A stretch of DNA of 64,000 nt. Source: Kondoa subrosea (lineage: Eukaryota). The stretch covers positions 124,001-188,000 of the forward strand of contig BCIN01000009.1 of assembly GCA_039545335.1 (NCBI GenBank). The letters are read 5' to 3'. The notes under the pieces are model-generated. The model saw only the letters and a list, made by a program, of their open reading frames with translations, had not been told where the DNA came from and did no database searches. Positions 3,001 to 30,037 of the stretch are shown one piece after another. Numbering within the stretch: position 1 is the stretch's first letter; each line of letters starts with the position of its first letter. The position numbers and the translations under genes are program-made.

Positions 3001-4148
3001 GATCTTGCGTGCTCCATTCCATGCTCAAAATGCCTTTCTCATGACCCGATAGCGTCTACAATCTGGCTTAACAAAACTGTTGGCCATAAGGAAAGGCAGA
3101 ACATACCCTTTCTGGCTCTCTAGGATTTCGAAGATCCCACATGAAGACTACCGGCGTCATATCATTCTCTGAAGAGACAGCCAACATGCTCGGCTGAAAA
3201 GCTGCTTTAGTTTTTTTTGACAACACAAACGACGACCTCTCTCACCAACTCGGGATGCCAGGCAACACAGCTAGATCCACCTCTGGCCCCAGCAGCGTTC
3301 ATCCAATTCTGTTGAGGTCCACCTTGACCACCCATTTGCCCTTGAGGTGCAGCGAGTGTGACGAATTCTCTCTTTGTTCTCAGATCCCACACAACAGTGT
3401 ACCCTGAAGAAGAGGAAGTCGCAAAGATAGATTCATGTTGCGGGTTCCAAGCAAGTGAAGTGATATCTTCCAAATTCCTCGAACGCGTTCCAGGCGAGAA
3501 AGGTTTGCCTGGTGTTGCGATATCCCAAATCCAGATCTGTACCAGCAGGGCCATCCTTAGCTTGATATTAAGCTGACGGAGTCATTGCACGCACCTCCCC
3601 ATTGGAAGCACCTGTAGCTAATACATTTGTTTTTATGGAGTTGAAACCCATTGCGCGAATAGGACTGCTATGCATGTCTTTGTTACTCCATATCAGGGCG
3701 CTATGGAGATCATCAGCGCCATCCTAATCAGGGATGTGACTTGACGCACTCTTCGGCTGAAGAATCGTTCATGATTTTGACTGGATCATAGATACCGAGT
3801 TCACCATCTTCAAAACCAGCTGCTATAACGCCTTTAGGGAAATCTGGAGCATGCACATAACCCCAAGCTATGCTGGTGAATCTGTGCATGTATTGATCCA
3901 ATCCTAAGCTTGTGTGAAGCCTAGACGCGCCCTTCAACGCACCTTGCTGCTACTTTAATACAACCTTTAAGTACAGGCTGCTGATTTCCAGTTTGCAACG
4001 GGTCCCAAATCTCGAGCTTGCTCTCATTGGAGAAGGACTCGTCTAAAGCGTCTGCGCTTGATCCAGCAGCTAAGAGAGGTGTCTTGAGACCTTCGGCTGC
4101 CTTAGGCGACCAGCAGAAAGTGGCAGAGCGTTGAATGCTCGCTCGCAT
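1..4148 (-). CDS. SEC31: COPII coat protein Sec31 (3' end runs off the window); multi-exon
   Basis: N-terminus [15 protein letters not shown]...[15 protein letters not shown] and WD40 repeats ([33 protein letters not shown]), then an alpha-solenoid region and a long Pro/Gln/Tyr-rich region, as expected for Sec31. Confidence 0.95.
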
Positions 4149-4367
4149 ATTTCTCTGTCGAATTCGTCGAAGAGGTATGTGTCAGGTGTGTTATTCGTGC
4201 GAGCTAGACCTCGGTATTGGAGCGTGTCAGTCGTTAAAGCAGTCAATGGAGAGCCAGTCAAGCAAGCCTGGTTGATAAAGGTCGACGTGGCTTATAGAGC
4301 ATCAGAACACGACGCCAAAGTCGCGGTCACATCGGAACTGCTTTCGTTTCTCTATGCTCAGTACAGT

Positions 4368-10174: not shown

Positions 10175-10726
10175 CTAGTATGATCCACCTATATCATAGC
10201 GGAAGTATCGTTTTCCTGGTTTGCCAACTTTCTGCCACTGTAGACAACATTCGTGAGTTGCTGGTTCGCGACTCGGACGATTTGCTCACTCCTGTCCTGA
10301 TCAAAGCTTGTAGCCAGCATCCACCTAGCATGCATACAACAAAAAAGACTTCCGGTGGATTTTGGCCCCAAGGTCTATTCATCCCGGTCACGAACAGCAC
10401 ACAATTATCCCAGAATTATTCTTACCTGGTCGTGCCGTCCACATTGGTGTTCAGCGGTCTATATCCAGGCGTTCCTCTTACTGTCGGCCAATCTTCTTTT
10501 ATCCCATCCCAATTTCAGCTTCGTTCATCTTCGGATCAATCACCTTACCTGGATTGTTCCAGTGCAGATCCTCAGGTGTTGGATCCTGCTCTTCATCACT
10601 CAATATCGAGCCTTGTGTATGAGCCGAATGTTCATCAATCAGATTTCTCTCTTCCCCTCTTAGGCTCAATGATCCAACTAGACTTGACAGAGGTCTAGCA
10701 ATCGTTTCTGTTCTTGCATGAGCCAT
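10175..10726 (-). CDS. Small uncharacterised protein (~125 aa, 4 exons)
   Basis: Three GT-AG introns join MAHARTE...LHWNNP|EDWPTVRGTPGYRPLNTNVDGTT|RPWGQNPPEVFFVVCMLGGCWLQALIRTG|WQKVGKPGKRYFRYDIGGSY* in a single frame. Confidence 0.7.
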
Positions 10727-10881: not shown

Positions 10882-12316
10882 ATGGTGAACAAAAAACATC
10901 CTACGTGGGCTTACTTTAACCCTTCCTCTTTGATTCGCTGATAGTCATATCCAGGCCGGTATTCTTCATGAGCCACGGCTCAACGATGATGATGGGCGAA
11001 GCATCCAAACCAGCTGAGTTCTGGCGAAGTGTAGGAATCGAAGCCAAAAGAAGGGGAGTGAAAGGTCAGCGTAGAATTAGCCTGGTTCAAGTTCCTATTT
11101 AACTTATCCGATGGACACAGGCATTGTTTGGCAAGGCGCACATTGGGAAGTTTCTGGTGAAGGATTCGAAATCGCCGCGAATCCTGGTGTTTGCAAGAAA
11201 CAGCCTGTCAGTTGGGTTCATCCGAGCAAGGTTGGTCCAGCTTTTCCTTGTTCTCCGTAGGTATTGACGGGCATCAACAGTATCAAGACTTTGAGATAGT
11301 CTGCGATCCGAAACTTGCGAAACGAGTACAAGGTCTGCTGCAAGACAGGGGCATTCCCGCTAAGCTGAACGAGAATGTCGAGTGTGAGTATTGTGGCAGT
11401 TACAAACTCCCGATATCTTGCTGATGACAATCTGTGCAGGGGTTCACGATGTCTTCTTGGTTCTTCGCTGGATGTTTGGCGATAAAGTAAGTCTGTAAGC
11501 ATTTCATACTGAGTAAAGTTCAAGTTCATTTTCAGGGACCTTCCCTACCATGTACTTTGATTTCAACGAACGCATACTACGATCCATGGAAGGTGAGCTT
11601 TGCGCTCTAAGACAATGGTTCAAACTGATGCACGGGTAGAACATTGATGTCGGAGCTGCTTGTCGACCACTGAGATACGAGAACATCCTGTTGATTGGCA
11701 CAGGCGGAGTAGTGCACAATCTTTACCGGAATAAATGTATGTGATACTGTCCTTCAACTGATGTATGTTCTGATCACAATCTTACTTAGGGTCAAATGTA
11801 GATAATTCGCGAATTGCTTTGTTTTCCGGCTGATGAGCATATAGATCGTACTCTACCGGGATAATTTCGCGCAACAACGAGCGCCAGATGCTTTCGCTTT
11901 GGATTTCCGGACTGCAGCAGAGGATGCTTTGACGAAGAATACTGTCAGGCGATCAGACTGGCTGTATAAACTATAGCTGACTCTCATCATCACAGGGTCC
12001 TGCTCTTCGTCGAGCAGCTATGCGCCTCATGTCTCATCCACTCTTTAGAGAGGCTCATGGAACAGGTAACGCTCACACATACTCAGCAATCGGCCGAAGC
12101 TGATATTGTATAGATGATCACTATGCGCCCATTTTATTTGCTGCTGGTGCAGCTGGATCGGAAGAGGATGTTGGTACCAAGAACTACGCTCCTGCAGAGT
12201 GCTGGGAGTTGATCAAGTGAGTTTCAGACACTTTTTGCTGCTGGATGGTGATTGACCAGTCGTTTAGCATGGCGAATACACAGCTGCAGTTCGGCGACTG
12301 GGATCCTCAGCAGTAG
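10882..12316 (+). CDS. LigB-family (type II extradiol) aromatic ring-opening dioxygenase; ~10 exons
   Basis: PVFFMSHGST, QGAHWE, GTGGVVHNL and AHGT|DDHYAP motifs carry the His ligands of the LigB/DODA-like family. Confidence 0.9.
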
Positions 12317-12540: not shown

Positions 12541-15500
12541 ATGTCTTCCAGCTCTGGTCCTCCCTTCTGTTGTGCATTCCCTGGCTGCGCCAAGAGCTAT
12601 CTTCGGCCAGAACATCTTACTAGGCAAGGCTTGAAATAATAGGGCAAGCTCGAAGCTGATTCTGATTGCTTAGACATGCTCGGTCGCACGAGGACGAGAA
12701 GCCATTTGGGTGTGATAACTGCGAGAAGCGCTTTACCAGGTCGGTACAGATGTCCTTGTTATAAACATGCACATTGATTGTGCCGGCTCAGGCGCGATGT
12801 GCTGGTGCGACATCAGAAGCAACACAACAAAGATGATGTGGACCCATCTGAACGGAGATCTGCGGCATTGAAAAGAGCCAAGCGAGCCTGCAAAGCCTGT
12901 GGTACTGCGTGAGTGCATTCTCATCCAGCCTATGATCAGCTGAACCGTGTTCTAGTAAAGTCAAGTGCGACGGCAATCAGCCATGTGCCAGGTGTATCAG
13001 CTCGAACAAGCAATGTATGTACAACCAAGTACTCGAAGCAACTCCCTCGAATAAAAAGGCTCGGCTGGACCTGAATCAAAACTCCTATCAGATGATGGAC
13101 TACGCACCTGATTTACCAGTAGCCAGTACATCAGCAATTCCTATAATGGATGCCAATATTCAATCTTATGCCTATCCCATGTTGCCATCAACGTCTTTCG
13201 ATGGCTCTGTGCAGCCTAGCCCTCCTTCAATGTACGGTAATGGCTTTTCGAATGATTTCGATATCAACTCTCTCCTATTCGGAAGATCAGAATTGTATGC
13301 AAGCAATGCTGCAAGTACGAACAGTAATGACTTCAATTCACCGCAAAATTTCCTCAATGTCGATTGGAACGACTTCTTGACTCAAGCTGCCGATCGTGAC
13401 ATCGCTGCCTGGCCGAAGCAACCTGAAATTTTGACAACCAATCCCTCTCCAGCAGGATTTGCAGCAGACAACGCGCAGCCATTCGTCGAAACTCCCGATA
13501 CACGCAACGTGGCCTTTGGGTTGGCGGCTGAGCCCGATGGTATTCAACCCATTACCGAATCAAACGATCATGTAGCCGCCAGCAGTCTGCTTGAGCTGAG
13601 ACGGGAACTGCCTGCATTGCAAGATGGTCTTAGGACTCGAGCACCTTCTCCGACGCCAGAAGAGCAACCAAGACAAGGCTTATGGCCAACGAGCTGGGAG
13701 CCAGGTTCAGGCACCTTGGCAGATTACTACAAGTATAAGCATGTTCAAGGTATACAGAACGAGTCAGGTACGAGTCGAGATTCGCAGTCTCTGTCGCGAT
13801 CCTCAATATGATTTGACAGACAATTACGCTCACCGCAGTGATCTACCCATTTTCAGCGAAGAATCCCGTTTGGCGGTCATTGAACTCCTTCGCTTCGCGG
13901 AGTTTACTATGGAGGTCTATCATCGACTATTCGTGACTCTATCTCGGATGTAGGTCACCTTTATCTGGTCAGCCCGAAAACTCTTAAGGTCGAGCAGATC
14001 ACTTTCAACCTTTCAGCACTTTCTCGATCTCTACTTCGTACATGCGCACCCGTATTTGCCCTTCGTTCGTCTCCTATATCCAAAGATCATGCCTAGTGAG
14101 CTGACTTTTCCCACAGTGTCATGTCCCTACGTTCGACACGAAGCGCACGTCTGGCTTTGTAGTCGGTGCTATGCTGGCCCTCGGTGCTCGATATTCACGT
14201 CTCAAGGGTTCTGATCCGTTGGCTGATGTTTTGAGCGATATGGTGTCGAAGAGTCTTGGAAACTGCATTACATCAGATCATGTCCTGGCTCGAGACATTC
14301 AATTACAACGGGCAGCAATTCTTTGGAGCTTACAGAGATCAAGTGGAAGCCGCAGATTGATGGAGATAACCGAGGTATTACGAGGAACGCACTGCGTTGC
14401 TTTGCGACAATTGCACTGTTTTGATGACTCCATCCAAATGCCTCGTCTTGTCTTCGATCAATCGGTGCCGTTGGAGAAGAGATGGAAGACATGGATCGCT
14501 TGGGAAGGGAGAAGACGCTCTGGCTTCGCTGCCTTTCTGTCCGATGCGGACTTCACAATCTTTCTCGGTCGGCCTGCTATAGTTCTTCCGTGTGTCCCCA
14601 CTGCCTGTAATGATATTTTTCTGATAATTCCAGCAGTCAGGATATATCAGCAGTTTTGCCGAGCAGCGACGCCCTGTGGGATGCCAAAACTGCCGAAGAG
14701 TGGCATTCATTGTCTCATCTACTCTCTTACGCGGATAGCAAAATCTCGGCATCTTCCATCTTGGATTACACGGCTTCACAAGACATTTTGATTCGACAAG
14801 CTCGCACTTCAAGCTTTGGATCAATAGCTCTGGTTCTCATGCTCAACATTGCTTTGTCAGTCCATTTCATCAAACCGGACGTGTCTCATTCTGTTTATCA
14901 TCAGGTGGTCTTTACGGCAATCTGGACGCTTTTCCAAATCGGTCTGGAAAGTTGTGCGATCGGATATCAAGCAAGCTTTACTGGCACTTGGTTCTGGCGC
15001 CAATGAATTCATACCGTATTCTGCAAATGATACGGTCGCTTCAGCTTCCTTCGCCATTGTGAGTTCTCGATACATCGATTGACGCTTTACTGACAGGTCA
15101 TTAAGCTTTACCATCAAACACATATAGCTCTCAGAATTACTTCAACTGTGATACTCGCAGCTGCTGGGAAAGAAAGTGCAAACGGTGCAAACGCCGCGCG
15201 AAAAGAGGTGTGTCCATTGCATCTTGCTCGGCTCATTGCACCTAAAGCAAGTCTAGATCATCAATCTCATGACAGCAGAGCCCGTCGCCGCTCGAGAAGT
15301 GGCTCTGCATGCTGCGCAATGCTTTCGCCTTATCCGTGACAAGGGTTCTGAAAACGGCATTGAATGCTTCTGTCTCTTTTTCAGCGCCATGGTTCTCTTT
15401 CTTTATTCGCAGCTGCCACGTATCCCTTCAGAGGATGCACTGGACGAAGGGCACTTGCTCAGTATCAATTTGGATTGTGAAAAAGCCTCGTAATCCAATC

Positions 15501-15765
15501 ACTCTATTTGGCTAGCCTTTCGCTGACTGCTTATCAGTGCCTTTGAACTCGATTGGGTCAGCTCAGGATTTGGGGAACCTAAGTTGGCTGGGGCTGTACT
15601 TGAGCCGATGTCGGTACTTAGACAAGCAATCGATATCTTCGACGCTCGCACTAGCTGGGTAAGCTTTATCCACTCTGTGGATAATGTGTATTGAGTTACA
15701 TCGAACAGGGACTCAATGGCAGCCTCTCCAATATTCTGCAAGCTATAGTCAACGAAGGGCAATGA
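12541..15765 (+). CDS. Transcription factor with 2 C2H2 fingers, a Zn(II)2Cys6 cluster and a fungal-specific TF domain
   Basis: CAFPGCAKSYLRPEHLT|RHARSH, CDNCEKRFTR|RDVLVRHQKQH and RACKACGT..KVKCDGNQPCARCISSNKQC; WKTWIAWEGRRR and LPSSDALWDA in the middle homology region. Confidence 0.9.
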
Positions 15766-15804
15766 CAAGCAGTATCATCAATTGCATGTACACATTAAGA
15801 ACCT

Positions 15805-16649
15805 TCACTGTATCACCTGTCCATCTTTCATCTTGTCTACATAGCCAATTTGTCAGATCCGAAAGGACATTGAGCATCTGTAACTTACATCCTGCATCTC
15901 CTAGCTCTTTCTGCAAAGAAACCATGAGTATAAGTAATGTCAAGAAAAGATGATGCGTACGCCTTGGATGACCAGAGGCTTACTAGCTTGCAGTATGAAG
16001 TAAATTCTTGCCCATCGATCAGTCACATTGTTCCACTGGAGAAAGTAGTCAGCTGTCTTCTTTTAGGCATCCGAGTCGAGACTGACTCCGTGTATAGTTC
16101 CTCTCTGGACTACAACATCGCCCTTCTTCATTGGTACTTCCACTCCGTCGTCCAATATCAGATTGCATTCGCCTTCGGTAACGATGCCGAAGTCTAAAGA
16201 CTGAGTTCGATGAAAGGGAGAAACGCTATTAGCTGATGGAAATGATCAGGTCGGCACAAATACTGTAAATGGATCAGACATACGTGGACAGTCTACGACT
16301 CTTAGAATCGTCCCAGCTTCGTTACTGAGCTTGTTTCCAGTTTCGCTTAACGCAAGATCTCGAGTATCTGAGTTATCGTAAGGCATGGAGTCGGTAGTGA
16401 AGATGTGAGCGAATCTTGAAGCAAATCAGCAATCAACACCTCGGCTGGGATCTGGATTGATTACCTTGCAGAGGCTCCATCAACTGTTGAGACCGGCTTG
16501 GCTTCAATTGTATCGTCTTTCCAGCTGTTAACATATCAGCTAGGGTATCAATGAGTTGGGGAAAACACCCACACAATTGCTTTACCGTTCGCGTCATGAC
16601 CTGTAAGAACGCGCCGGATTTGAAGAGGGAGATCAGCTGTTGCAGACAT
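15805..16649 (-). CDS. Cupin-domain protein (RmlC-like cupin_2); multi-exon
   Basis: Spliced MSATADLPLQIRRVLTGHDANGKAI...GTILRVVDCP...SPFHRTQSLDFGIVTEGECNLILDDGVEVPMKKGDVVVQRGTIHGWNN, the typical small fungal/bacterial cupin motif pair. Confidence 0.85.
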
Positions 16650-16822: not shown

Positions 16823-18553
16823 ATGATGGCTTGGATTTCAGTACCAGAAGATAGCGATTTCAGCATTCACAATATTCCTTTTGGAGTGATCTCGAGCAGC
16901 CAAAACAAGACTGGACGAACAGCTACGCGTATAGGCGACAAAGTCATTGATCTGAAGATCTTGGCCAACAGTGGCTTGCTATCCGACAAAGGAATAGAGG
17001 AGGCCTCATTGGAAGCCTTGAAACAAGTTTGTTAAATTTCTTGCATAGTAGGTCCACGCTGACTCGAAGGCTACAGGACTCTTTGGCTGCATTCGCTGGT
17101 CTGTCCGCTGCCCAAAGGCGGGCTGTGAGACTGCAGATTCAAGCGACGCTGTCTGGGAAGAAGCCAGACAATTTTCCAGATGATGCGATATTGGATGTCA
17201 GCAATGTCAAGATGCAGCTGCCCATGCGAATAGGCGATTACACAGACTTCTGCATTGCCAAATGTCATATGGACAATACTTCGTGAGCCAACTTAGTCGT
17301 ATTCCTGCTCGTATTCTCATTACATTAACAAAGACGTGCGGTTGGTGACGGTTCAAGCCCAGCCCAAATGCCTTACATGCCCATCGGTAGTTCCTGTTCT
17401 GTCAATCTCACGCCTGAGCTCATGACTGCTGCAGGATATCATGGGCGAAGCTCTTCCGTCGTTGTTTCTGGTATTGACTTCAAGAGACCTTGGGGTCAGT
17501 TCCGGGTCAAGCCTTCAGATACCGTATGAATACCCTTTACTTTGTATACGCCAATCGCTGACCATTCCTTGCAGCAACCTGTCTTTGAGCCGAGCCGAAA
17601 GTTGGATTATGAAGTAGAGCTAGCATGCTTTGTTGCTCGAAACACTGAATTGGGCGAGACTATTGATATCGCTGAAGCTGAAGATGCGATCTTCGGTGTT
17701 GTACTCATGAATGGTGATTGCTTCTTTACTTGGCATACTGTTGAAGCTTATTCGGGTTGAATAGATTGGAGTGCTAGAGACATCCAAGTCTTCGAGATGC
17801 CACCTCTTGGGCCATTCCAAGGTATTCCTTCCGAGACTCTATAGGTGAGCAAAGCTGATATGATTGCACAGGCAAGAACTTCTGTACCACAATCAGTAGG
17901 TGTTGTCCTATCTTCCAATTTTGCGCTGATCGACTTCACTCAGGCCCTTGGGTTGTGACTCTTGATGCGTTACGGCCCTTTCGTGCACCTCTGCCTCCTC
18001 GATTACAACCAGAATTCGACTACTTGCACCTGGAGAAAGACGGCGAATCGGTAAACCAATGTCTCGATATCAATCTTTCAGTTGAGATCAAGAGCGCAAG
18101 TTTGTCCCTACCTTTGTCCATTGCATTCTTTCTCGTCGTTGATAAATGCTCTTTAGCTTCTACCTTTTCTGTACCAAACATCAATGCCAAAGATTTCTAC
18201 TGGTCACTCGAACAGCTTTTGGTTCATCAATCCATTTCGGGCTGCCCAGTTGCTGTTGGTGATTTGATTGCAACTGGTACATGTAGTGGACCAAGGGAGG
18301 ACACGCTCGGCTGTCTTGTCGAATTGAGTCAGGGCGGGAGGAAACCATGGAAGATGGCAAATGGAGAAGAAAGGACCTTCCTTCTTGATGGCAAGTCGAA
18401 AGGCTTCACAATCTAAAGCATGGAACTTATTGTCTGTATTTGTGTATGATTACAGGCGACGAAGTTGTTATGAGGGGATATTGTGCGAAGTCTGGTGTGC
18501 GTGTAGGGTTTGGTGAATGTGCAGCAAAAGTTTTGCCTGCGGATAAGCGGTAA
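16823..18553 (+). CDS. Fumarylacetoacetase (FAH)-family hydrolase
   Basis: SDFSIHNIPFG, IGDYTDF, GYHGRSSSVVVSG, LDYEVELA, NDWSARDIQ..PLGPFQGKNF, GDLIATGTCSG and GFGEC motifs. Confidence 0.92.
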
Positions 18554-18705: not shown

Positions 18706-20546
18706 CTAGACTCTCCGGAAGAAGCGATACAATGAATACCCTGTGAAACCAGTGACACTCAAAATGGTCGACAAAACCAAAGCTAGGGAAAGGAAAAGAC
18801 CCTGGAACAAATATAAATGACGATAAGCTTGCCCAGAGAAATGTGCTTACCTGCAAAAAGAAAACCCGACGTATGATATTGGCATGTGGTTTGAGCTTGA
18901 TTTGCAGTTTTGACTGAAAGTCGGGCAGCAACACCTTCTGCATTGTAGCCACTTTCCATGAAGCATACGGTGGGAAGATAGCGGAAGCTTCGGAGGAACC
19001 AGGCGCATGGACATAGATAGGGCGCTCGAACATACTGGAAGTCCATCGTCCTGACAGTGCTGCCGGTCCTTGAGGAGGATAGACACAGACTGAGACAAGG
19101 ATCAGACTTGTCTAAGATCTTGATGACTGTGCTTACCTAGTCCGTCCAGAGGGATATCGTTCGAGTACATTACAGCCGGACGCAGTTCAGTTGCAAAGTA
19201 ATCACTGACGCAAGGTATGAGCTCTATTTTTGTGGAAAGAAATGATCTTACAGCTCCAGCTGGCTGGCGAAGATACTCAGTGTATGACCCAATCTACAAC
19301 AACAGATGAGCAAGACTCGATAAAGTAGACTGAAACGCACCTTGCAGATGCAATCTTGATGGCTTCTTCCGTACTTGAAAACGACACGACAGGCAAAACG
19401 CATCCTTCGATCCGTTGATCCAGCATTCGAGAATCACCAGAAACATTTTCAACCACTGTAGGCGCAGACACATTTCCATCCTGCTCAATTCGACCACAAA
19501 CTATCTTGGCAGCACCCAAATCACCCAAAGAAACTTTCTGATTGCCTATAGCCACATCTGATCCCGCAGCAGAAAGCTCTTTTGCAGCTTCAACCAAATG
19601 TCGAACAAGCTCATCGTGCAGTTCTTCATGAACGCAAACGAAAGACAATGCTCCGAGACTCTGACCACCAAAAGCGCAGAATTTAGCTCGCGCGACGAGC
19701 TTAGCGATGCGTTGAAGTTCCGCCGTGGGAGTTGTCTTTGAGACTATGCATAAATTTTGAGCTGAAGGTTTGGCGGTTGCTGGCAGAAGATGGAAAGGAG
19801 AATTTGTATCTGCAGCTGATCGGGCAATTTCTCTTCTAAGGTTGAGATCAGTTGAAGTTGCGAGGTAGACATCGAAAGAGTGACACAAAGCAGCCTTCAT
19901 GGTTGCATCATCTGAACAGAGAATAGGATAGGCGTCTCGATCAAGAAGAGGATAGATATGCCGAGTGATTAGCTCGTGAGTAGCTTTTGCTTCTTTCGGC
20001 AGCTGTGAAGCATGAGTCAGGTAAAATACAATATGGAGGAAAGGATTGCGAACCAAAGTAAGAACAACATTGCCCGCCGCAATAGCCGAAGCAAGAGGTG
20101 AGATCGTACTTTCCAAAGGTGCTATAGTAGACGATGAGCTGGGCTGTCTAATATCAGACAAACAAGACGAACCTGTCTTGTGACCAATGATTATAAGACT
20201 ACCATAAGGCGTAAGGATCTTTCCTCCGGTACGATGTTTCGCGACTCTCTCGGCCAAATTTTCGAAATGCGTGTCTTCATACTGCAAACGAAGCTGCTGA
20301 AGGACTAAGGAGACTTCCAGGTTTGCTTCGAATTCAGGCTTGCCAGTATCTTGCTGCAGAGCTTTAATGAAACCGGTCTTGTATTCACTCATGATATCTA
20401 GAGTAGGTGAATCAGTACCAGGTTTGACTGCAGTCACAGAGCGGACTGTATAAGGTCATAATCTGCCTCTGCCGGTAACGCGGAAATGTTGCGCGACCAT
20501 CGATTCGGCATTCTCGCAAGTGTTGCAGCGCGCTTTCGACTTGCAT
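18706..20546 (-). CDS. Aldehyde dehydrogenase-like protein (degenerate active site) with C-terminal membrane anchor
   Basis: ALDH-fold landmarks PLASAIAAGNVV, APTVVENV and IEGCVLPVVSFSSTEEAI; ends in the hydrophobic tail FFLQ|GLFLSLALVLSTILSVTGFTGYSLYRFFRRV*. Confidence 0.8.
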
Positions 20547-20718: not shown

Positions 20719-23700
20719 ATGAGTGAAGTCAAGAATGCAATCCGTACGATAGAGACAGACGAAGAGCATGATATGATCGTCGAAATAAACACAGACATAC
20801 CATTGTCTGGTGACGGCGGTAAGCAAACCAGCAAAGCCACAAGCAATCACTGATAGAAAAGAACAGGTCCAGGTCTAGCAAGATGCAACGTATACAGACC
20901 AAAAGCAACGGAAGCAGGCGCAAAATTTCCGGTCATCTTGGTCAGTTCATCAGAGGGCAGTTCCAAGCATGGTTACTGACTCTCGTTGTCTTAGACTATG
21001 GGACCTTGTAAGAGAAGCAAGGATTCGGAAGAGCGTTGAGTCGCTAATCTGTGTAAACAGACGGCAAGGATATTCCTTATGAAGACTTTCACGGCAAGAG
21101 CTTCGCAGGTCAGTCGTTCGCAGCTGTTTGAGACACGAATTCTAACTTCTTCTTCGAAAGATGTACGGAAATACGCTCCGGAACAGACTTCTAAGGTGAG
21201 AGACATCAGCTCTTAAACATCATATTGAGATGCTCAACATTGTATATCGCAGTGGAGTGCTTGGGAAACCCCTGAACCTACATTCTGGACAAAGCATGGC
21301 TACGTTGTTGTTCGCGTTGATGAGCGAGGTCTCGGTCAATCTCCTGTATGTCTCTCAGTTTTTCAGAGACGTACAAGCCTGATTAGTTATTCTCTGTCAA
21401 GGGCTTCATGGATACTATGAGCAACTCTACGGCTGCAGATTTCGCTTGCTGTGTCGAATGGGCTTCTGCGCAGTCTTGGTCGACCGGCAAAGTTGGTCTT
21501 TTAGGAGTGAGCTATTACGGAGGATCACAATGGAGAGTCGCAGCCCGTCAACCCAAGGGTCTCGCGTGCATAATCCCTTGGGAAGGAATGTAAGTCAGCC
21601 TGACAAGCAATCATCTGCTTTAGCTGACCATCGCATTAGGTCGGATTATTATCGCGATAGATGCCGTCAAGGCGGTATCTACTCCAATCAATTCGTAAGT
21701 ACATATTCCGAGTCAAAACCCTTTCTGAGCATATGGATACCTGTCTTCCAGATCAAGTTCTGGCAAGATCGTCAGGTCCACTCCGCTCAATACGGGTTGC
21801 CTGGCAGAGCTGCTCGCAAATGGGGACCAGATACAATTGAAGGAGATCTTACGCCTGAAGAATTAGCAAAGAATCGGACGGATCAAATTACCGATAACGC
21901 TGAGAACCGCTTCACGGATGATCCGTACTATGCTTCGAGGGAATATGATAAAGGCAAAATCCAAGTGCCACTACTCAGTGTCGCTAATTGGGTAAGCCGC
22001 TGAATTTGCAAGGGGCTTCTCGATCTCACCTGAAGGTAGGGTGGAATTCTTCTTCATCTTCGAGGAAATGTTCTTGGCTATTCAGAAGCTGGCTCTGCTA
22101 AGAAATGGCTGTACTTCATCACTGGTCGACATGATCTTCCATTCTACCTTCCCGAGTACGTTGCTTTACAAAAGTCATTTCTGGATGCTTTCCTCAAGGG
22201 TGAAGACGACAAGGTGAAGTGTTATCAGGCTATTCCATTCTCTAGACTAATTTCATTGGGACAGGGATGGCTCAAGGGACCGAATGAAGCTGTTCCAGCT
22301 ATCAATGTTCTGATTCGCAAAGGCACTCCGGGATTCAATACTGTCGAAGCTGATCGTACTTTCAAGACCCGAGAAGCATCAGCGTGGCCTCTTCCAGAAA
22401 CTCAATATACCAAATACTATCTTTCTTCTGACCTCAAACTTTCTGTATCGCAAGACACTTCAGAAGATAGTCAGCTGGAGTATGAGGCTCTGACTGGTCA
22501 ACCTTTTAGTTTCTCTACGCCAGCTTTCGAAGAAGAGACGGAAATCACTGGTCATATCACTGCAAACCTAGTGATGGGTGTGAAAGGTAAGCTAAACATA
22601 TGCAAGCGAGTGTAAGCTGAGTCGCCTGCTTACATAGCTTCGGCTGGAAAAGAAGCACCAAAAGATCTAGACGTTATGGTCACGTTGCGGCACTTCGATA
22701 GGGACGATAAGGAAATTTTCTATACCGGTCAGTCTCGCAATGTCTGGAAAGGCTACGATCTAATATGCTTGATAGGTACTGCTGGTGATCCGGTTCCGCT
22801 CTGTAAAGGTTTCCTGCGGGCTTCTCTTCGCGCTATCGATACTTCAGATCCTCGTCACCGTGATTATATACCTTTCCGAAAATACGCCAGCACAGACGTC
22901 TCTTATCTCGACGCTGAGAAACCTCACGATCTTCTTGTTGAAATCTGGCCTACCTCTGTTGTTGTTGAGCAGGGTAGTCGTATTGTTTTCGAAGTACGCC
23001 AGACCTTTTCTTCGATCCGCTGTGACTGAGTCAGCCTGATTAGATCTCGCCTGTCGATACTCAAGGCTGTGGCATCTTCGGTCACAATCATCCTCAGGAC
23101 CGCTCAACAGAAACCTTTGGAGGTAAGAACATTATCTACTTTGGTCCAAAACACGAAAATTGGGTTTCCTTGCCTATCATCCGCAAGACTGGCAATGCCG
23201 AATCCTCCATTGCTGTCGCAAATGGATCAAATCCATTCCGCGTCATCATAGTCGGTGCCGGTCTTGCTGGCTTGGCTGCAGCAATTGCTCTTCGAGGCAA
23301 AGGTCGCCAGATTACTGTCCTTGAGTCGAGTCGCATGAAGACAGAGATTGGTGCCGCAATTCATTTGGCACCTAACGCAACCAAGATTTGTGAGCAGTGG
23401 GGTTTGGATATCGAGAGTATGTGCTATCTGACACATGGCGTTCTTGATCTCGCTGAGCTTACTGACTTTCTAGCTGCGGCACGAGCTACAGTCTGCAGAG
23501 GCTTGAGCGAGATCAGCTCGGATGGTATTACCCGCTTCAAGATGCCCATTGACGCGAAGAAATTTGTTGGCGCTGTGAGTCTCGCCACATGCACTTCGTG
23601 CATAGGCTGACCGAGACCACAGCACTGGCTGCTCAATCATCGAGTAGATTTGCACAATGCTTTCCGCGACTTTGCTATAAAGGAAGATCGCGAAGGCCAA

Positions 23701-24926
23701 GCTGCGAAGATTATTACTGCAGCAAAAGTCGTCTCGGTCGATTGCGAAAAGGGAATAGTCAAGACTGAAGATGGTCAGACATATGAAGCTGATCTCGTTA
23801 TTGGAGCAGACGGGTAAGTCTTCGCCTCCAATATGTTATACTGGCTTAAAAGTTGTGACAGTATCCATTCGCCTGTTCGAGAAGCTGTTTTAGGGGAAGT
23901 CAGAATAGCTCAACCTAGTGGTCATTCGGCATATCGAGCTCTGATTCCGAAAGAGAAGCTGCTAGATATTCCAGAAATTGTTAATGATGTTCTTCAACAC
24001 GAGAATGGGCATATGAAGATGGTAGTTGATAAAGATAGACGAGTCGTGAGTCAAAACACTCATGAGGTCTTCCATACTAACATATCAGCAGATCTTGTAC
24101 CCTTGCAGAGAAGCGAACGTTCTGAATGTGTAAGTTTTGAGGCTTTGATATGAACTCACTTGAGGCTGATCACCTTTCAGTGTTGCTATATGTCCTGACA
24201 GTGAGTACCTTTTCCGTTTTCCGACTCCGAAAACTGTTCTGAAGCACCTTCAGCTTTGATGCGGGAAGAAGCCTCCCAATCTTGGAATCAGCCCGGTGAT
24301 GTCGCGGAACTCGTCAAGACCTATTCGAATTTCCCCCAATGGCTACAGACAACATTGTCTAGAGCTGAATCGTGCGGACTGTGGCAGCTGAGAGACCAAG
24401 ATCGACTTCCGACCTGGGTCAAAGGTCGTACTATATTGATTGGAGACAGTGCCCATGCAATGCTGGTCAGTACTGCCGGTACTAAACCTGTCCTCTGCTA
24501 ACATATGAATTTTCGTCTACAGCCGCATCAAGGTCAAGGTAGATCGATATCCGAGAGCCTATTCGACTACACTAATGCATTTTCAGGGGCTGGGCAAGGA
24601 GTTGAAGATGCAGAGGCATTGCAAGCATTCTTCGAAGGCGTCGACCATGCCATCAGCGCCGAAGAGGTCAACAAACGTTTGCAGCAGGTCTTTGATTGCC
24701 GTATCGATCGAGCTTCTACCATTCAGCAATACAGTAGACAGCAAGCTAGACCTCCTAAATCAACAGAGCAAGGTGTAGCCCTGGACAGTGCTCAATTCTC
24801 TCAGTATAACTTTGGGTCAGTGAGCTGATTCTTTCATCCGGTGCTGGAAACTGATTCATGGGCCGCAGGTATAAGGGTGCGAAGGAGTGGGTCTCGAGAA
24901 CCCAGCCTCCTGCAGCTGCTGCATAG
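20719..24926 (+). CDS. Fusion protein: CocE/NonD (S15) serine hydrolase + FAD-dependent aromatic monooxygenase (salicylate hydroxylase-like)
   Basis: Hydrolase motifs MGPYGKD, WETPEP, VDERGLGQSPG, GVSYYGG, IIPWEG and HLRGNV run in frame into VIIVGAGLAG, EIGAAIHLAPN, DLVIGADG and LIGDSAHAMLPHQGQGAGQGVED. Confidence 0.85.
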
Positions 24927-25606: not shown

Positions 25607-28006
25607 ATGTCACAGCCCGGACATGAAGAATTAGAGAAAGACACTTTCGAGATGGTTTGTCGTCGCGATCTCTGCCTCATGTAGATTCCCCTCATCTTCC
25701 TTGATTGCAGCGAGAAGAGCACTCTGGCAACGATCTTTCCCATTCCTTCACAGCTGGGAGTGAGCAGATGGCTACCGTCGCGCCGGTGAGTGTTTCGCCT
25801 TCTTGTTCCACCTTTCTGAGTAATGTAGGATATCACGCTCCGCGCTATGCTGGTTACTGCAGCCGCTGGCTTCTATTGGATCGGCATGCTGTACAATCTC
25901 ATCAGTTTAGCGACCTACAGCAGGAACATCGCTTCAGCTTTAAACGACTCAACTCGTGCGCCTTGGATTTTGAACGCTTTCAATGTTGTCACAATTGTCT
26001 TTGCGCCCATTCTCTCATATTGGAGTGATCTTTTTGGTAGAAAATGGATCATCGTTGCCAGTCTGCCACTTGGAGTTGTGGGCGGAATCATTGGATGTCG
26101 TGCTACATCTGTAAGCCGCTGATCGGAGCTTTGGTGCAAGACTGACAGCAGCTACAGGTCACTATGGTCATCGTTGCGACATCGTTCCTCGGAATCTCAG
26201 GATCTCTATTGGGCGTCGTTACATCAATTCCTTCCGAAGTTCTCCCACATCGATACAGGGCAAGCGGTCAAGCCGTAGTCTCTGCCCTTTCGATAGCAGG
26301 CGGAGTGGCAGCTTTGCTAGGCCCCGCAAGCGCTATTCGCAAAGATCCCGTCGATGGCTGGCGAACGATCTTCTATTCCTTGATCGGCATTTGGGGCGTT
26401 CTTTGTGTTATTTGGCTAGTAGTCTACAACCCACCTAAAAGGCAAACTTTCCTTACACAAGATCGGCCATCACTTGATTATATTGGATATGTGTTGCTTG
26501 CAATTGCCACTGTCCCCTTTCTATTGGGTCTGGTGAGTGGACTCTTAAATAGCCACTCTCATGCATTGATGGAATTTTCCTCCATGATAGACTTGGGGTC
26601 AGCATTCAATTCTTGATCTATTGTATCGGCTGACCAGTCATCTAGGTGGTAATGCTTATCCTTGGAAGTCTGCCCATGTTTTGGCCCCCTTGATTGTTGG
26701 TCTTGCGCTCTACGTGGTCTTCGGTCTCTATCAGTGGAAAGCAAGGAGCGATGGTCTGTCTCTATGATAGCTCTGTGTTCTAGGCTGATATCAGAACAGG
26801 TCTTTTGCATCATGGGCTGTTCAAGAATCGCAATTACCCACTTTGCATCATTGCAATAGCTGTGGAAGGCTTCGTGTATCAATCCTTCAGTTACCTTTAT
26901 CCGGCAAATGTAGCGACGGTCATTCAACCAGATATTTATCTGGTATGCTCGGTGTACCTTCTTCCAGCAGAGTTCTCACTGCGTACCTCAGGGAAATCAA
27001 AGAGTTCTTCCGTTCTATGGCACCTTCTTAGTTTCCTTGTTGATAGCATCCTTCTATGTGGTCAAGACTCGAGATACAGTCGTAAGCCTTTTGTATCCCT
27101 TCTACGGTCTTTCCTTGACCTGAGAAATACCTGCAGACGCCAATTCTAGTTGGCTATATCTTCCTCACTGGTGCTCTTATCGGTCTCGCCCTCTCTACAC
27201 CTTCCACACCTAATCTACATATCGCAATGAATGCTCTTGCAGGATTGGGCTTCGCTCTCCCCTTGTGTTTCCTTACCGTTGTTGCCCAATTTGCTGCACC
27301 TGCCGCCCTGATAGGTAAAAAATAACTCTTCCCGTTCACGATTACTCTCGCCAATTCTTCATGATAGGAACATCAACAGCTATAGTCTTGACTTGTCGCA
27401 GCTTGGGAGGTGCAGTAAGTTCATGTCCGACCATACTTTGATCCAACTAATGCTCTGCGATTGCTGCAGATTGGAATTGCCGTAACTTCTGCCGTTCAGT
27501 CGAGCAAACTTAATCAATACCTTCCTGCGTATATTGCTGCTGGTAAGCCCGAAGTAGCCGTTCACTAAGTTGTCAGCTTACATTACTTTAGCAACTCTGC
27601 CTCTTGGTCTCAATCCAGCTCTACTAGGACCGGTCATTGGCGCTGCTGCTTCAGTAAGCTGTCTCAAACATATCAAATCATCACTAAACCTTTTCTCTAG
27701 CATGATCCTACTCTTGTAGCACAAGTCAGTCACATTCCTGGCATCACTCCTCAAATTCTTGGAGCCGCCTATGGTGCAGCTGCCGAAGCTTTCTCTAAAA
27801 GCTTCAACATGGCCTTTTGGGTTGTTGTGGCTCTGAGTGCCATGGGCGGACTTTGCATCCTTTCCTTGAAGCGAAATCGCGAGCAACTCGAGTGAGTTTC
27901 CTCATCTGATCTCTGTAAAGTGATTACTAATCGCTTGAGCAGCTACATCGTTGATGCCCCTATTCAGCCTATACACCATAATAAGGCAAGGAAGGAGCAG
28001 GTTTGA
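25607..28006 (+). CDS. MFS transporter (TRI12/Str1-like 14-TM efflux family); many exons
   Basis: WSDLFGRKWIIV MFS motif A, IPSEVLPHRYR, GWRTIFY, YNPPKR, LDYIG and HHGLFKNRNYP, with multiple hydrophobic helices. Confidence 0.88.
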
Positions 28007-28209: not shown

Positions 28210-30037
28210 ATGGAGAAGCTAGAGAAAGACCTCAAGAGTAAGCTTGCCAAAGCTGATACAGCCAAAGCGCAATGGCTTAAGGTAAACATCATCTGTGAAA
28301 GCATTTCTTGAAAATCACTGACTCGTTGTACAAGGCCTCGCATGATCTGGCTTTGGCTCGTGAAGCATTGGAAGATGCACAACGAAAAGCTGCTCTAGAG
28401 GCGTTGCCTGGGTTCGTCTACTGTACACGAAGTCTCAGCTAAGATCTCATCTCTGTTTGATAGAGTCGACGAGAATTCTGCTGGTACCAGATTCCCTTAT
28501 GAAGGTCAATCAGCCGCAAAGTATTCTTCGCATCGGCTAACCCTTTCTCGTACTACACAGTCTGGTCAAACATTTGCTCCAATTGTCGAGGTCTAGAGTT
28601 GAAGCAAGTAGGTCTCACACCTCACGAGGAGTGATGTACCAATATACATTGCGCTTCAGCTCGCTCAGGTCAACAAGTAAGACAGCATGCTTCATCAGGA
28701 TTTGTACTGAGACTACGGTAGGGTTATCTCGAAAATGGCCGTAGCACTTTTATGGACTGATCTCGACGTGAAACTGATTCGAGGACCTGATAAGTGAGTG
28801 ACTGGAAACCTGGCTGTGCAAATCTGAGCAGTAAGCCTTAGATCTAAACCCAAAACAGGTCTTGCGAAGGTATACTACTGTTCCGTTCGCGATGACGTAG
28901 CGCTGAATCGAGGGTCAGACTCTGGCTTCGGTCGCAGAGGCGTTGAATAGTTCGACAGCGCAGCACGTCAAGAGCTTGAAAGCACCGCTTGCGATGCCCA
29001 AGGTCTGTCTACAAGACCAATCAATCATCTAAAAGCATGATTTTGATCGGTTGAACAGGCCCCTGAGCGCAAGAACGTTCCGCTGATCATCGGAGCATTG
29101 GGAACCAATCCAAAACGTCTTACATCCATCTTCTACACTTGCGATGTAAGACCAGTTACCGATGATCATCAACTTGCGCTGTCACTGGTATTGAACGCCT
29201 CAGGTATGTCAAGAATCTCTCAAGCAGTAATAACGCTTGTTCATGTTATGCTGCCTGAAGTAACCCTTACTAGCTTCTCATTTTCTGCGAAATCATTCAA
29301 CACCAGCGCATGGCAGTTGGCTGCAATCATTATTGAGAGTTTACCCAATCTAACTGCTCTTGAAGTTTCCGAAGACAACTTTTTCAGCGCGCCGTCCTTT
29401 CAAATCAGTAAACCATCTGTCTGCCGAGCGATCTCCAGTCTGACCAAGCTCAAGAATTTAACATTGATTATGCTTCCTGTTTCGGATTTGAGTCTTGTCA
29501 AAGTCTCGAGCCCGGTCTCGAATTTACAGCTTGCGTTTTTGCAATCTGTGGACAATGTCATCGATGTGGTACATGATTTCGCACCGCAATTTGCTAATGA
29601 ATTGACCAGTCTGCACCTGGGTCAGTCTGCCACACAGTATCGTGGTTTGTCCTCTAACATCTATGATAGCGTACAATCTGTCGGTCGGAGGCATGAGGAG
29701 AACCATGCCTGATTCTACTTTTGTTGTCAGCAATGTACCGACTATTGATGTATACCCGCAATTGGAAGAACTGTTCATTACCATGGACAAACCAAAACAG
29801 CCAGAGCCAGAACACGTCAAGCTCTTACCAGCTCTACTTGCATACCTCAAGTTACCTCTTCAACATGTCAAGCGCTTGCATTGTCGCTGTGAACAGATTA
29901 CGCCTTTGATAGAGGCAATCAGAGCGGATCATTTGCCAATGTTGGAAGAGTTGTTTGTTGGCAAGAACAACATCAATTTCTCTTTGACCACATATGGCAA
30001 ATTAAAGGATTTCAAGATTACGGAAGAATGGCCGTAA
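28210..30037 (+). CDS. F-box/LRR-like hypothetical protein; many small exons
   Basis: Spliced N-terminal coiled coil, then RFPYE|VWSNICSNCRGLELKQ|LAQVNK|VISKMAVALLWTDL (F-box-like), then LxxLxxLxL repeats (LPNLTALEV, LTKLKNLTL, LPMLEELFV). Confidence 0.6.

Follow-up and report, generated by a model that had tools for sequence, protein, structure and literature searches.

The closest described counterparts of the locus reported here are two bacterial gene clusters, fde of Herbaspirillum seropedicae and ifc of Variovorax V35 (PMC11069340), in which an 8-hydroxylating monooxygenase, an extradiol dioxygenase, a cupin and a hydrolase are clustered. The same four kinds of gene lie together in a 64,000-nucleotide stretch of Kondoa subrosea DNA (GenBank assembly GCA_039545335.1, contig BCIN01000009.1, C9 in our numbering, positions 124001-188000), referred to below as the window, where the hydrolase, of the CocE/NonD type, and the monooxygenase, a group A flavin enzyme, are joined in frame within one gene. 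The accounts of fde and ifc, in the parts covered, describe no such fusion. Their dioxygenase is of the glyoxalase type (FdeC/IfcB) whereas that of the window cluster is of the LigB type, and the ifc hydrolase resembles 2,6-dihydroxypseudooxynicotine hydrolase rather than CocE (PMC11069340). By analogy, the window cluster may work like the fde/ifc pathway without being a member of it by descent.

The nearest characterised protein is fungal: the flavonoid 8-hydroxylase RgF8H of Rhodotorula glutinis KCh735, described as catalysing the NADPH-dependent C8 hydroxylation of naringenin, chrysin, apigenin and other intact flavanones and flavones, with a 7-OH being required (PMC9422121). According to the same account it was chosen from the 100 transcripts changing most on flavonoid induction, here with naringenin, and shares 29% identity with the bacterial FdeE; the main text of that paper, in the parts covered, contains none of the words “cluster”, “hydrolase”, “dioxygenase” and “cupin”, and refers an fde-like operon in yeast to future work. 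A study of naringenin breakdown by P. rubens (Peng et al.), which is reported to follow an A-ring route resembling that of bacteria, described (iso)carthamidin together with the masses of a delta-lactone and of 4-(4-hydroxyphenyl)-3-buten-2-one; in the portion covered the genes were not identified and no syntenic cluster was found. Fungal clusters of the aromatic ring-opening dioxygenase (ARD) classes hold, as here, a monooxygenase, a fumarylacetoacetase (FAH)-like gene, a transporter and a regulator; the parts covered describe these classes as computational, with aromatics and flavonoids as guessed targets (PMC10735191). The clusters for gallate and 1,2,3,5-tetrahydroxybenzene combine DUF3500 with a short protein, neither CocE nor LigB occurring in the parts covered (PMC10832562). 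Our literature searches, none of which was aimed at fungal flavonoid-degradation clusters, returned no description of a CocE-monooxygenase fusion or of this cluster. Both domain families are known, and the fusion of metabolic cluster neighbours is a known kind of event.

A hydrolase and a monooxygenase in one open frame

The fusion gene runs from an ATG at 20719 to a stop codon ending at 24926 and is modelled as 3072 nt of coding sequence with no internal stops and with 22 introns, each GT-AG and 46-57 nt long. Such short introns, like the homologues, fit a fungal genome, probably that of a basidiomycete yeast. Splicing was deduced from sequence and homology, and the model describes the gene at the DNA level; its exons match the Pfam families Peptidase_S15, PepX_C and FAD_binding_3. 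The junction lies in exon 14, which proceeds from ISPVDTQG through WVSLPII and the linker RKTGNAESSIAVANGSN (23182-23232) to PFRVIIVGAGLAG. On the N-terminal side, residues 1-596 align with stand-alone hydrolases as far as the final residue of these homologues (identity at most 61%), and residues 614-1023 align with stand-alone monooxygenases starting at their first strand, so that two domains complete to the termini of their homologues are separated by only 51 nt.

With a splice-site matrix built from the 22 modelled introns, a single intron candidate was found ahead of the GxGxxG motif (23123-23187, 65 nt). It was rejected, being longer than all modelled introns, with an acceptor score of 1.8 against a minimum of 2.6 and no branch motif; its removal would also shift the frame and take away the conserved strands with which the hydrolase ends. 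An independent start codon for the monooxygenase was likewise discounted: the two ATGs that precede GxGxxG, at 23195 and 23222, belong to other frames, and the first in-frame ATG, at 23335, lies 3' of this motif. The preliminary description of this DNA, which had the last hydrolase exon running from 23044 into the monooxygenase with neither stop, intron nor Met, is therefore borne out by the gene model, the splice matrix and the examination of ATGs, and it had also correctly described the motifs GVSYYGG, GxGxxG, DG and GD as intact.

An open frame of 17 codons is weak evidence when taken alone, as 52% of intergenic 51-nt windows are free of stops, and the codon usage of the linker does not discriminate: its score is equalled or exceeded in 61 of 378 stop-free intergenic windows, and 129 of 1006 coding windows score as low. 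The letters across the junction are identical in the contigs of two sequencing runs (depths 141.6 and 55.3); since both come from one sample, possibly the source of the window DNA, this agreement does not constitute independent support. What places the fusion beyond chance is the combination of two complete domains 51 nt apart, the behaviour of homologous loci, where a stop follows the end of the hydrolase within 0-28 codons in 39 of 40 dereplicated cases (the contig of the 40th ends there), and the existence of a second fused protein, P0335. In searches of the genome (27 contigs, 18.9 Mb) the hydrolase turned up once and the monooxygenase once in close form, the fusion domain being the best match of its clade; both counts are lower bounds. 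The fusion is thus confirmed at the DNA level. That a single functional polypeptide is made from it is very likely, and the bifunctional protein originally proposed has gained a second example.

P0335 is an open frame of 1031 aa on a Logan contig of 3357 nt, and because 92% of the contig is coding no spliced gene model is needed to read it; our guess is that the contig derives from a spliced transcript. Its domain order is that of the window protein (PF02129, PF08530, PF01494) with the junction at the same place, and the two proteins share 50% identity over 1035 columns (56% in the hydrolase and 41% in the monooxygenase). The P0335 linker is about 10 residues longer and unlike that of the window except near its end. 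In free trees calculated from chosen subsets (24 hydrolase and 27 monooxygenase rows) the two proteins are not sisters; a common clade is not rejected by the approximately unbiased (AU) test (p-AU 0.445 for the hydrolase and 0.339 for the monooxygenase). The trees appear compatible with both a single and a repeated origin of the fusion.

Searches with the junction exon returned no protein covering both halves among 33 matches, nor among the best 150 of 3142 in a second search, and of 2256 homologues of the hydrolase the best 120 were all without PF01494. All three of these searches overlooked P0335, so these blanks are insensitive and further fusions may hide inside sequence clusters. No bacterial fusion was seen among the best 80 of 396 prokaryotic loci, where no monooxygenase is fused in the longest stop-to-stop frames (L010, L061), and the ESM Atlas gave sub-threshold leads only (0.79-0.80), namely bacterial proteins with FAD_binding_3 and Abhydrolase_3. 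A metagenome locus that looked fused in tabular form, L147, proved to have the order monooxygenase, LigB, hydrolase.

Database hydrolases annotated as fusions to FAH (11 of 23), cupin, regulator, P450, aldehyde dehydrogenase (ALDH), short-chain dehydrogenase (SDR) or glyoxalase were not counted as real. The models P0089, P0110, P0119 and P0147 drop the last hydrolase residues at a possible GT donor, residues which the window protein and P0335 retain, and sister annotations divide merged hydrolase models into about 607 + 400 aa; for these reasons the database merges were used as evidence of adjacency only. P0311, P0326 and P0029 are further public models that merge the hydrolase with cluster neighbours (FAH, cupin, LigB, regulator). 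Four inspected merged models break just after ...TLP, where a Val in the homologues offers a possible false GT donor. A separate case is the bacterial-type P0351 (877 aa, ENA), in which a domain like NAD-dependent 6-phosphogluconate dehydrogenase (6PGD)/3-hydroxyisobutyrate dehydrogenase accompanies a hydrolase of the same subfamily.

Relatives of the two domains

The C-terminal domain combines GxGxxG, DG and GD in one FAD_binding_3 chain, as is expected of a group A flavin monooxygenase. The label “salicylate-hydroxylase-like”, which had been attached to it, was not upheld: its homologues P0335 and P0006 score 146 and 163 bits against a cut-off of 446 for salicylate 1-monooxygenase (TIGR03219). 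The solved structures related to P0006 are 8R2T, vanillate 1-hydroxylase 8X38 and 8GSM. The closest characterised relative of the window domain is instead RgF8H, with 48% identity (180/378, E 2e-112); the monooxygenase of P0335 is 41% identical to it. RgF8H is a free protein of 410 residues; its counterpart in the window makes up the C-terminal portion of a fusion of 1023 residues. The 90% cluster of the Rhodotorula match contains P0392 (WLD16088.1, “F8H [synthetic construct]”), the start of which matches, by eye, that of Rg3610long, which is RgF8H in Table S4 of the source paper (Dulak et al. 2022, PMC9422121).

Window protein and RgF8H have in common the substrate-domain motifs HSAYRALIP, YPCR, WQLRxQD and PHQGQG, which read DAAYRAIIP, YNIR, WRLMDRQ and PYRAQG in vanillate 1-hydroxylase 8X38, and in a tree the window protein, P0335 and RgF8H fall within a 12-row clade (support 92/86). 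Genes 97-99% identical to RgF8H are present in Rhodotorula JG-1b, CCFEE 5036 and R. mucilaginosa, 11-13 accessions from the hydrolase on contigs of equal size (one of 39.6 kb). Elsewhere in the K. subrosea genome, two near-identical FAD_binding_3 loci (C7:131266-132441 and C7:164239-165413) lie 33 kb apart, which may reflect a recent duplication or an assembly repeat.

The exons of the N-terminal domain score above the Pfam cut-offs for Peptidase_S15 (PF02129) and PepX_C (PF08530), and its homologues P0335 and P0045 reach 168.9 and 163.8 in TIGR00976 (cut-off 66.3). The family, with 2256 matches, bears the database name “X-Pro dipeptidyl-peptidase”. We regard this as a domain label: assignment to the Xaa-Pro dipeptidyl-peptidase PepX itself (PRK05371) was rejected, as homologues score 32-43 bits against 642-711. 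The key residues are Y63, S158-Y159, H288 and H313-D314, of which Ser158, Tyr159, His288, His313 and Asp314 occur without exception in the 61 homologues compared. S158/Y159 and Y63 (PYxK) align with GVSY and PYDK of CocE, and an oxyanion role for the two tyrosines is presumed. At the position that we take to hold the catalytic acid of CocE, the subfamily has Gly-Gly and no Asp; with its invariant H288, H313 and D314 it possibly uses a different catalytic arrangement.

The nearest solved relative is SACOL2612 of Staphylococcus aureus (E 8e-62; PDB 3IB3/3III), which has the same three-part fold and G-x-S-Y elbow. Structure 3IB3 also lacks a canonical acid and superimposes with TM 0.78 on the predicted model of homologue P0045 (pLDDT 84.6), compared with TM 0.62-0.67 and 17-20% identity for Rhodococcus cocaine esterase (PDB 1JU3 and others), which likewise has this fold and elbow. 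Residues 281-314 (22040-22140) contain the invariant stretches NxGGxxLHxRG and GRHD, where SACOL2612 has HNRG and HGRKEW. An activity report was found for no member of the subfamily.

The gene cluster in the window and in other genomes

The fusion gene belongs to a cluster bordered by housekeeping genes, RPS16 and MoaE (8.6-10 kb) on one side and a helicase from 30.5 kb on the other, a setting that the preliminary description had not noticed. Its features are collected in Table 1.

Table 1. Coordinates of the fusion gene, its parts and its cluster neighbours in the window
Feature	Position	Strand	Basis or remark
Fusion gene (CocE/NonD hydrolase, linker, group A flavin monooxygenase)	20719..24926	+	23 exons, 1023 aa
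CocE/NonD-type hydrolase, aa 1-596 (Peptidase_S15 + PepX_C)	20719..23181	+	Pfam, homologue alignment
Nucleophile elbow GVSYYGG, aa 156-162	21504..21524	+	Ser158 codon 21510-21512
Exon 14, carrying the junction	23044-23416	+	gene model
Linker, 17 codons	23182..23232	+	free of stops, in-frame ATGs and credible introns
Group A FAD monooxygenase, aa 614-1023	23233..24926	+	Pfam FAD_binding_3 (PF01494), homology
GxGxxG, aa 621-626	23254-23271	+	motif
DG, aa 771-772	23809-23862	+	motif, split by intron 16
GD, aa 916-917	24442-24447	+	motif
Small conserved protein (matched part)	10239..10478	-	E 9e-8 to P0119 N-terminus; gene about 10.2-10.7 kb
LigB / 4,5-DOPA-type extradiol dioxygenase	10956..12301	+	tblastn with R. 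toruloides P0308/P0317, residues 1-269 of 270
C2H2 + Zn2Cys6 transcription factor (ends approximate)	12550..15780	+	Zn_clus, Fungal_trans; C2H2 fingers by eye
Monocupin (matched part)	15949..16413	-	Cupin_2; gene extends to about 16.7 kb
Fumarylacetoacetase-type hydrolase (matched part)	16835..18392	+	PF09298 + PF01557
Aldehyde-dehydrogenase-like gene, no catalytic Cys	19280..20392	-	Aldedh E 9e-15; head-to-head with fusion gene
Major facilitator superfamily (MFS) transporter, TRI12-like (ends approximate)	25830..27900	+	one exon: MFS_1 + TRI12, each below cut-off

For the other genes of the cluster the alignments cover most of each homologue, and the LigB query P0308 is itself a PF02900 protein. 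In the ALDH-like gene the column of the catalytic Cys, placed where we take the canonical Cys and Glu motifs to lie, lacks Cys in the window, in P0350 and in 20 of 20 locus rows printed; typical rows read G-x-S-P-Y-A-P-D, and the Glu motif is replaced too. This gene could encode a pseudo-enzyme that has been conserved, or its ALDH fold could serve another chemistry. The small protein (about 100-150 aa, motif P-x-Y-R-P-x-N) usually lies next to the ALDH-like gene and gave no hit in Pfam or in the ESM Atlas. No identified gene of the window cluster carries a DUF3500 or ATEG_04855-type label, although a search aimed at these was not made. A weak tblastn match to the C-terminus of the LigB query at 3978-4172 (minus strand, E 0.002), 7 kb from the LigB gene, may be due to chance. 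Just beyond the cluster, positions 29047-30037 (plus strand) contain two long overlapping open reading frames that are leucine-rich-repeat-like, the first lacking a Pfam match.

Related hydrolase loci were collected from metagenomes (the best 80 of 247, apparently fungal, in 65 groups), and 42 dereplicated loci with a length of 7 kb or more were compared. The neighbours found there were the cupin (24 loci), the regulator (21), LigB (19), the ALDH-like gene (17), a monooxygenase (15), the small protein (15) and FAH (12), and we infer that these counts are above chance within flanks of 6-7 kb. The monooxygenase stands head-to-head with the hydrolase in 13 of the 41 loci with enough upstream DNA, and in 12 of these 13 a stretch resembling acetoacetate decarboxylase (ADC) follows it (L086, L097, L100, L101, L112, L114, L120, L128, L129, L131, L134 and L154). 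FAD_binding_3 and ADC also occur in one chain in the database proteins P0257, P0231, P0265 and P0245, two of the four being above the ADC cut-off.

In R. toruloides the published data include the gene order MFS-cupin-CocE-LigB, with a second group, CocE-FAH-monooxygenase-PhyH, about 50 kb away (PMC7873862); the orthologues in this yeast were matched by annotation and neighbours, not by sequence. Among prokaryotic loci (the best 80 of 396, redundancy kept) the same cupin was present in 34, a monooxygenase in 10 and FAH in 5, with no LigB and no ALDH. Paraburkholderia and Caballeronia loci show the order hydrolase-cupin-monooxygenase-glutathione S-transferase-extradiol dioxygenase, and a single-protein scan of prokaryote genomes yielded 2 loci only, both distant. 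Three described fungal systems were considered as possible instances of this cluster and rejected, namely the vanillate route of A. niger, which has an HmgA-type dioxygenase and a carboxylesterase, the BOA-induced clusters of Fusarium and the gallate/1,2,3,5-tetrahydroxybenzene clusters.

A proposed flavonoid A-ring route and its alternatives

We propose that the cluster would degrade flavonoids, or a similar resorcinol-type plant phenolic, via meta-cleavage of the A-ring. The C-terminal monooxygenase would use NADPH and O2 to hydroxylate C8 beside the 7-OH, giving a catechol-type A-ring that the LigB-type dioxygenase would then open. The fumarylacetoacetase-type enzyme would cut a C-C bond, releasing oxaloacetate and leaving a 5-aryl-3-oxovalero-delta-lactone like that described for naringenin breakdown in Penicillium, and the N-terminal CocE-type serine hydrolase would open this lactone or, less likely, itself make the C-C cut. 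The resulting beta-keto acid would lose CO2 spontaneously or, where an ADC domain is present, through its action. The cupin may act on pyranone-type intermediates, as described for its counterpart in ifc (PMC11069340). As the fused domains would carry out the first and about the fourth step, which are not consecutive, channelling is unlikely, and the fusion would simply place two cluster neighbours under one promoter, providing co-expression and fixed stoichiometry. To this mechanism as a whole, with the monooxygenase acting first on the flavonoid A-ring, LigB cleaving and CocE acting later, we assign a probability of about 0.45. Taken separately, a flavonoid is the probable substrate, and the hydrolase probably acts after ring cleavage.

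A number of observations weigh against this proposal. The fusion is rare, with one case (P0335) in 23 hydrolase homologues longer than 825 residues and none among the best 80 of the 247 metagenome loci. A monooxygenase was not seen within the flanks of 27 of the 42 dereplicated loci, and the Rhodotorula hydroxylase is not adjacent to the hydrolase, housekeeping genes intervening. The clade uniting the window protein with RgF8H (92/86) is not starred, the window protein stands outside the 4-row RgF8H subclade, and its own branch joins other, uncharacterised proteins (92/90); the substrate of a flavin monooxygenase is not fixed by 48% identity. Metagenome monooxygenases beside the hydrolase reach no more than 30-48% identity with RgF8H in the segments that match best, and the database monooxygenase-ADC proteins form a separate clade, for which reason the cluster may recruit different hydroxylases. 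No ADC gene was found in the K. subrosea genome. In the hydrolase, Gly283-Gly284 are invariant at the expected position of the triad acid, in a region without alignment to CocE, and since a canonical acid is not evident the chemistry of this domain is uncertain. Activity was found for no gene of the cluster other than RgF8H. The intermediates of P. rubens were identified by mass match only (Peng et al.), and disruption of the ifc alpha/beta-hydrolase gene is described as having no effect (PMC11069340).

The two domains might alternatively catalyse consecutive steps, the hydrolase splitting an aromatic ester or amide and the monooxygenase hydroxylating the released ring, possibly with decarboxylation, before LigB acts; channelling would then be possible, and an unstable product would, through the fusion, be retained close to the site that acts on it next. 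Flavonol breakdown is known to proceed through a quercetinase and a depside, and at its best this explanation would make the cupin the quercetinase, with CocE hydrolysing the depside and the monooxygenase converting the phloroglucinol carboxylate. CocE-family enzymes free aromatic acids from esters, structure 7F65 is a CocE mutant with bound benzoic acid, and decarboxylative hydroxylases (8X38, 8GSM, salicylate hydroxylases) are among the solved structures nearest to the monooxygenase homologues. The cupin is moreover the most constant neighbour of the hydrolase (24 of 42 fungal-type and 34 of 80 bacterial loci), and the same domain pair has been fused twice in the same order, in addition to standing head-to-head in 13 of 41 loci. 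Hydrolysis followed by hydroxylation of the released aromatic, with substrate channelling, was the order first suggested for this gene; we now consider it the less likely order, because RgF8H acts on intact flavanones and flavones and because ring cleavage by LigB would fall between the two domains. The window protein also has the motifs of RgF8H and not those of 8X38. Other fungi join the monooxygenase to ADC, a different late enzyme, which suggests that fusion follows clustering rather than the order of steps, and the vanillate route of A. niger, as far as its account was covered, also passes from monooxygenase through ring cleavage to an esterase.

Rather improbable, in our estimate, is the use of another aromatic substrate (a coumarin, stilbene, alkylresorcinol, hydroxybenzoate or N-heteroaromatic), flavonoid hydroxylation by RgF8H being then a secondary activity or one to which the Rhodotorula branch has specialised. 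The 48% identity to RgF8H, the unstarred clade and the varied bacterial neighbourhoods fit such a substrate, and a point against flavonoids is the transcript of the presumed R. toruloides orthologue RTO4_11963, which rises from 0.54 to 4.64 (in the units of the table) between the columns G_MM_exp and C_MM_exp, read here as glucose and p-coumarate. However, in the portion of the R. toruloides fitness table covered, the conditions of which include no flavonoid, the p-coumarate and ferulate scores of the hydrolase, LigB, cupin and FAH mutants all lie from -0.09 to +0.08, and benzoate and phenylalanine bring out no defect when the hydrolase, LigB or FAH gene is mutated; the cupin mutant scores -1.03 on benzoate and the monooxygenase mutant -0.76 on p-coumarate. 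The selection of RgF8H from the 100 most flavonoid-responsive transcripts also speaks for a flavonoid, as does the way in which lactone chemistry suits a lactonase, FAH and ADC together. A further explanation, which we regard as very unlikely, dispenses with a single protein: the monooxygenase would have a separate transcript or a non-AUG start, or else a chance deletion or an assembly slip would have left a read-through or crippled gene. It draws on the commonness of open 17-codon stretches (52%), on the derivation of both runs from one sample that may be the source, on the status of P0335 as a singleton from a contig of unstated organism and molecule type, and on the resemblance of other database hydrolase “fusions” to gene-model merges. 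Yet no in-frame ATG precedes the FAD-binding motif, the domains are only 51 nt apart, every motif and all 22 introns are intact, and a second copy of either gene was not found in the genome. P0335, at 50% identity, has the same junction, and the merged models lose the last hydrolase residues that the window protein and P0335 both keep.

Our broadest interpretation goes beyond the proposed A-ring mechanism and is correspondingly tentative. It holds that the cluster may be the missing fungal flavonoid A-ring pathway across ascomycetes and basidiomycetes, that the CocE subfamily may be a delta-lactone hydrolase with a non-canonical catalytic constellation (Ser158 and His313/Asp314/His288, without a classical acid), and that LigB may be the ring cleaver, with the first enzyme fused to the lactonase in at least two lineages and to the decarboxylase in other fungi.

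The fusion, being rare, carries lesser weight alone. The suggestion that it provides a Rosetta-stone clue tying the orphan CocE subfamily to aromatic catabolism is supported, with the cluster offering stronger evidence than the fusion: in this locus an enzyme of a characterised flavonoid-hydroxylase type is physically linked with an orphan family of hydrolases and with a conserved cluster of eight genes. A 2025 survey, in the part covered, describes fungal extradiol dioxygenases as insufficiently characterised. The locus provides testable genes, in R. toruloides RTO4_11986-11988 and 11962-11963, for a fungal route that two papers left without genes. If the proposed pathway is correct, it would tell what a large family of orphan fungal proteins, at present annotated as “X-Pro dipeptidyl-peptidase”, does, would indicate deletions that curb product loss in fungal flavonoid production, and would account for the use or detoxification of plant flavonoids by fungi.

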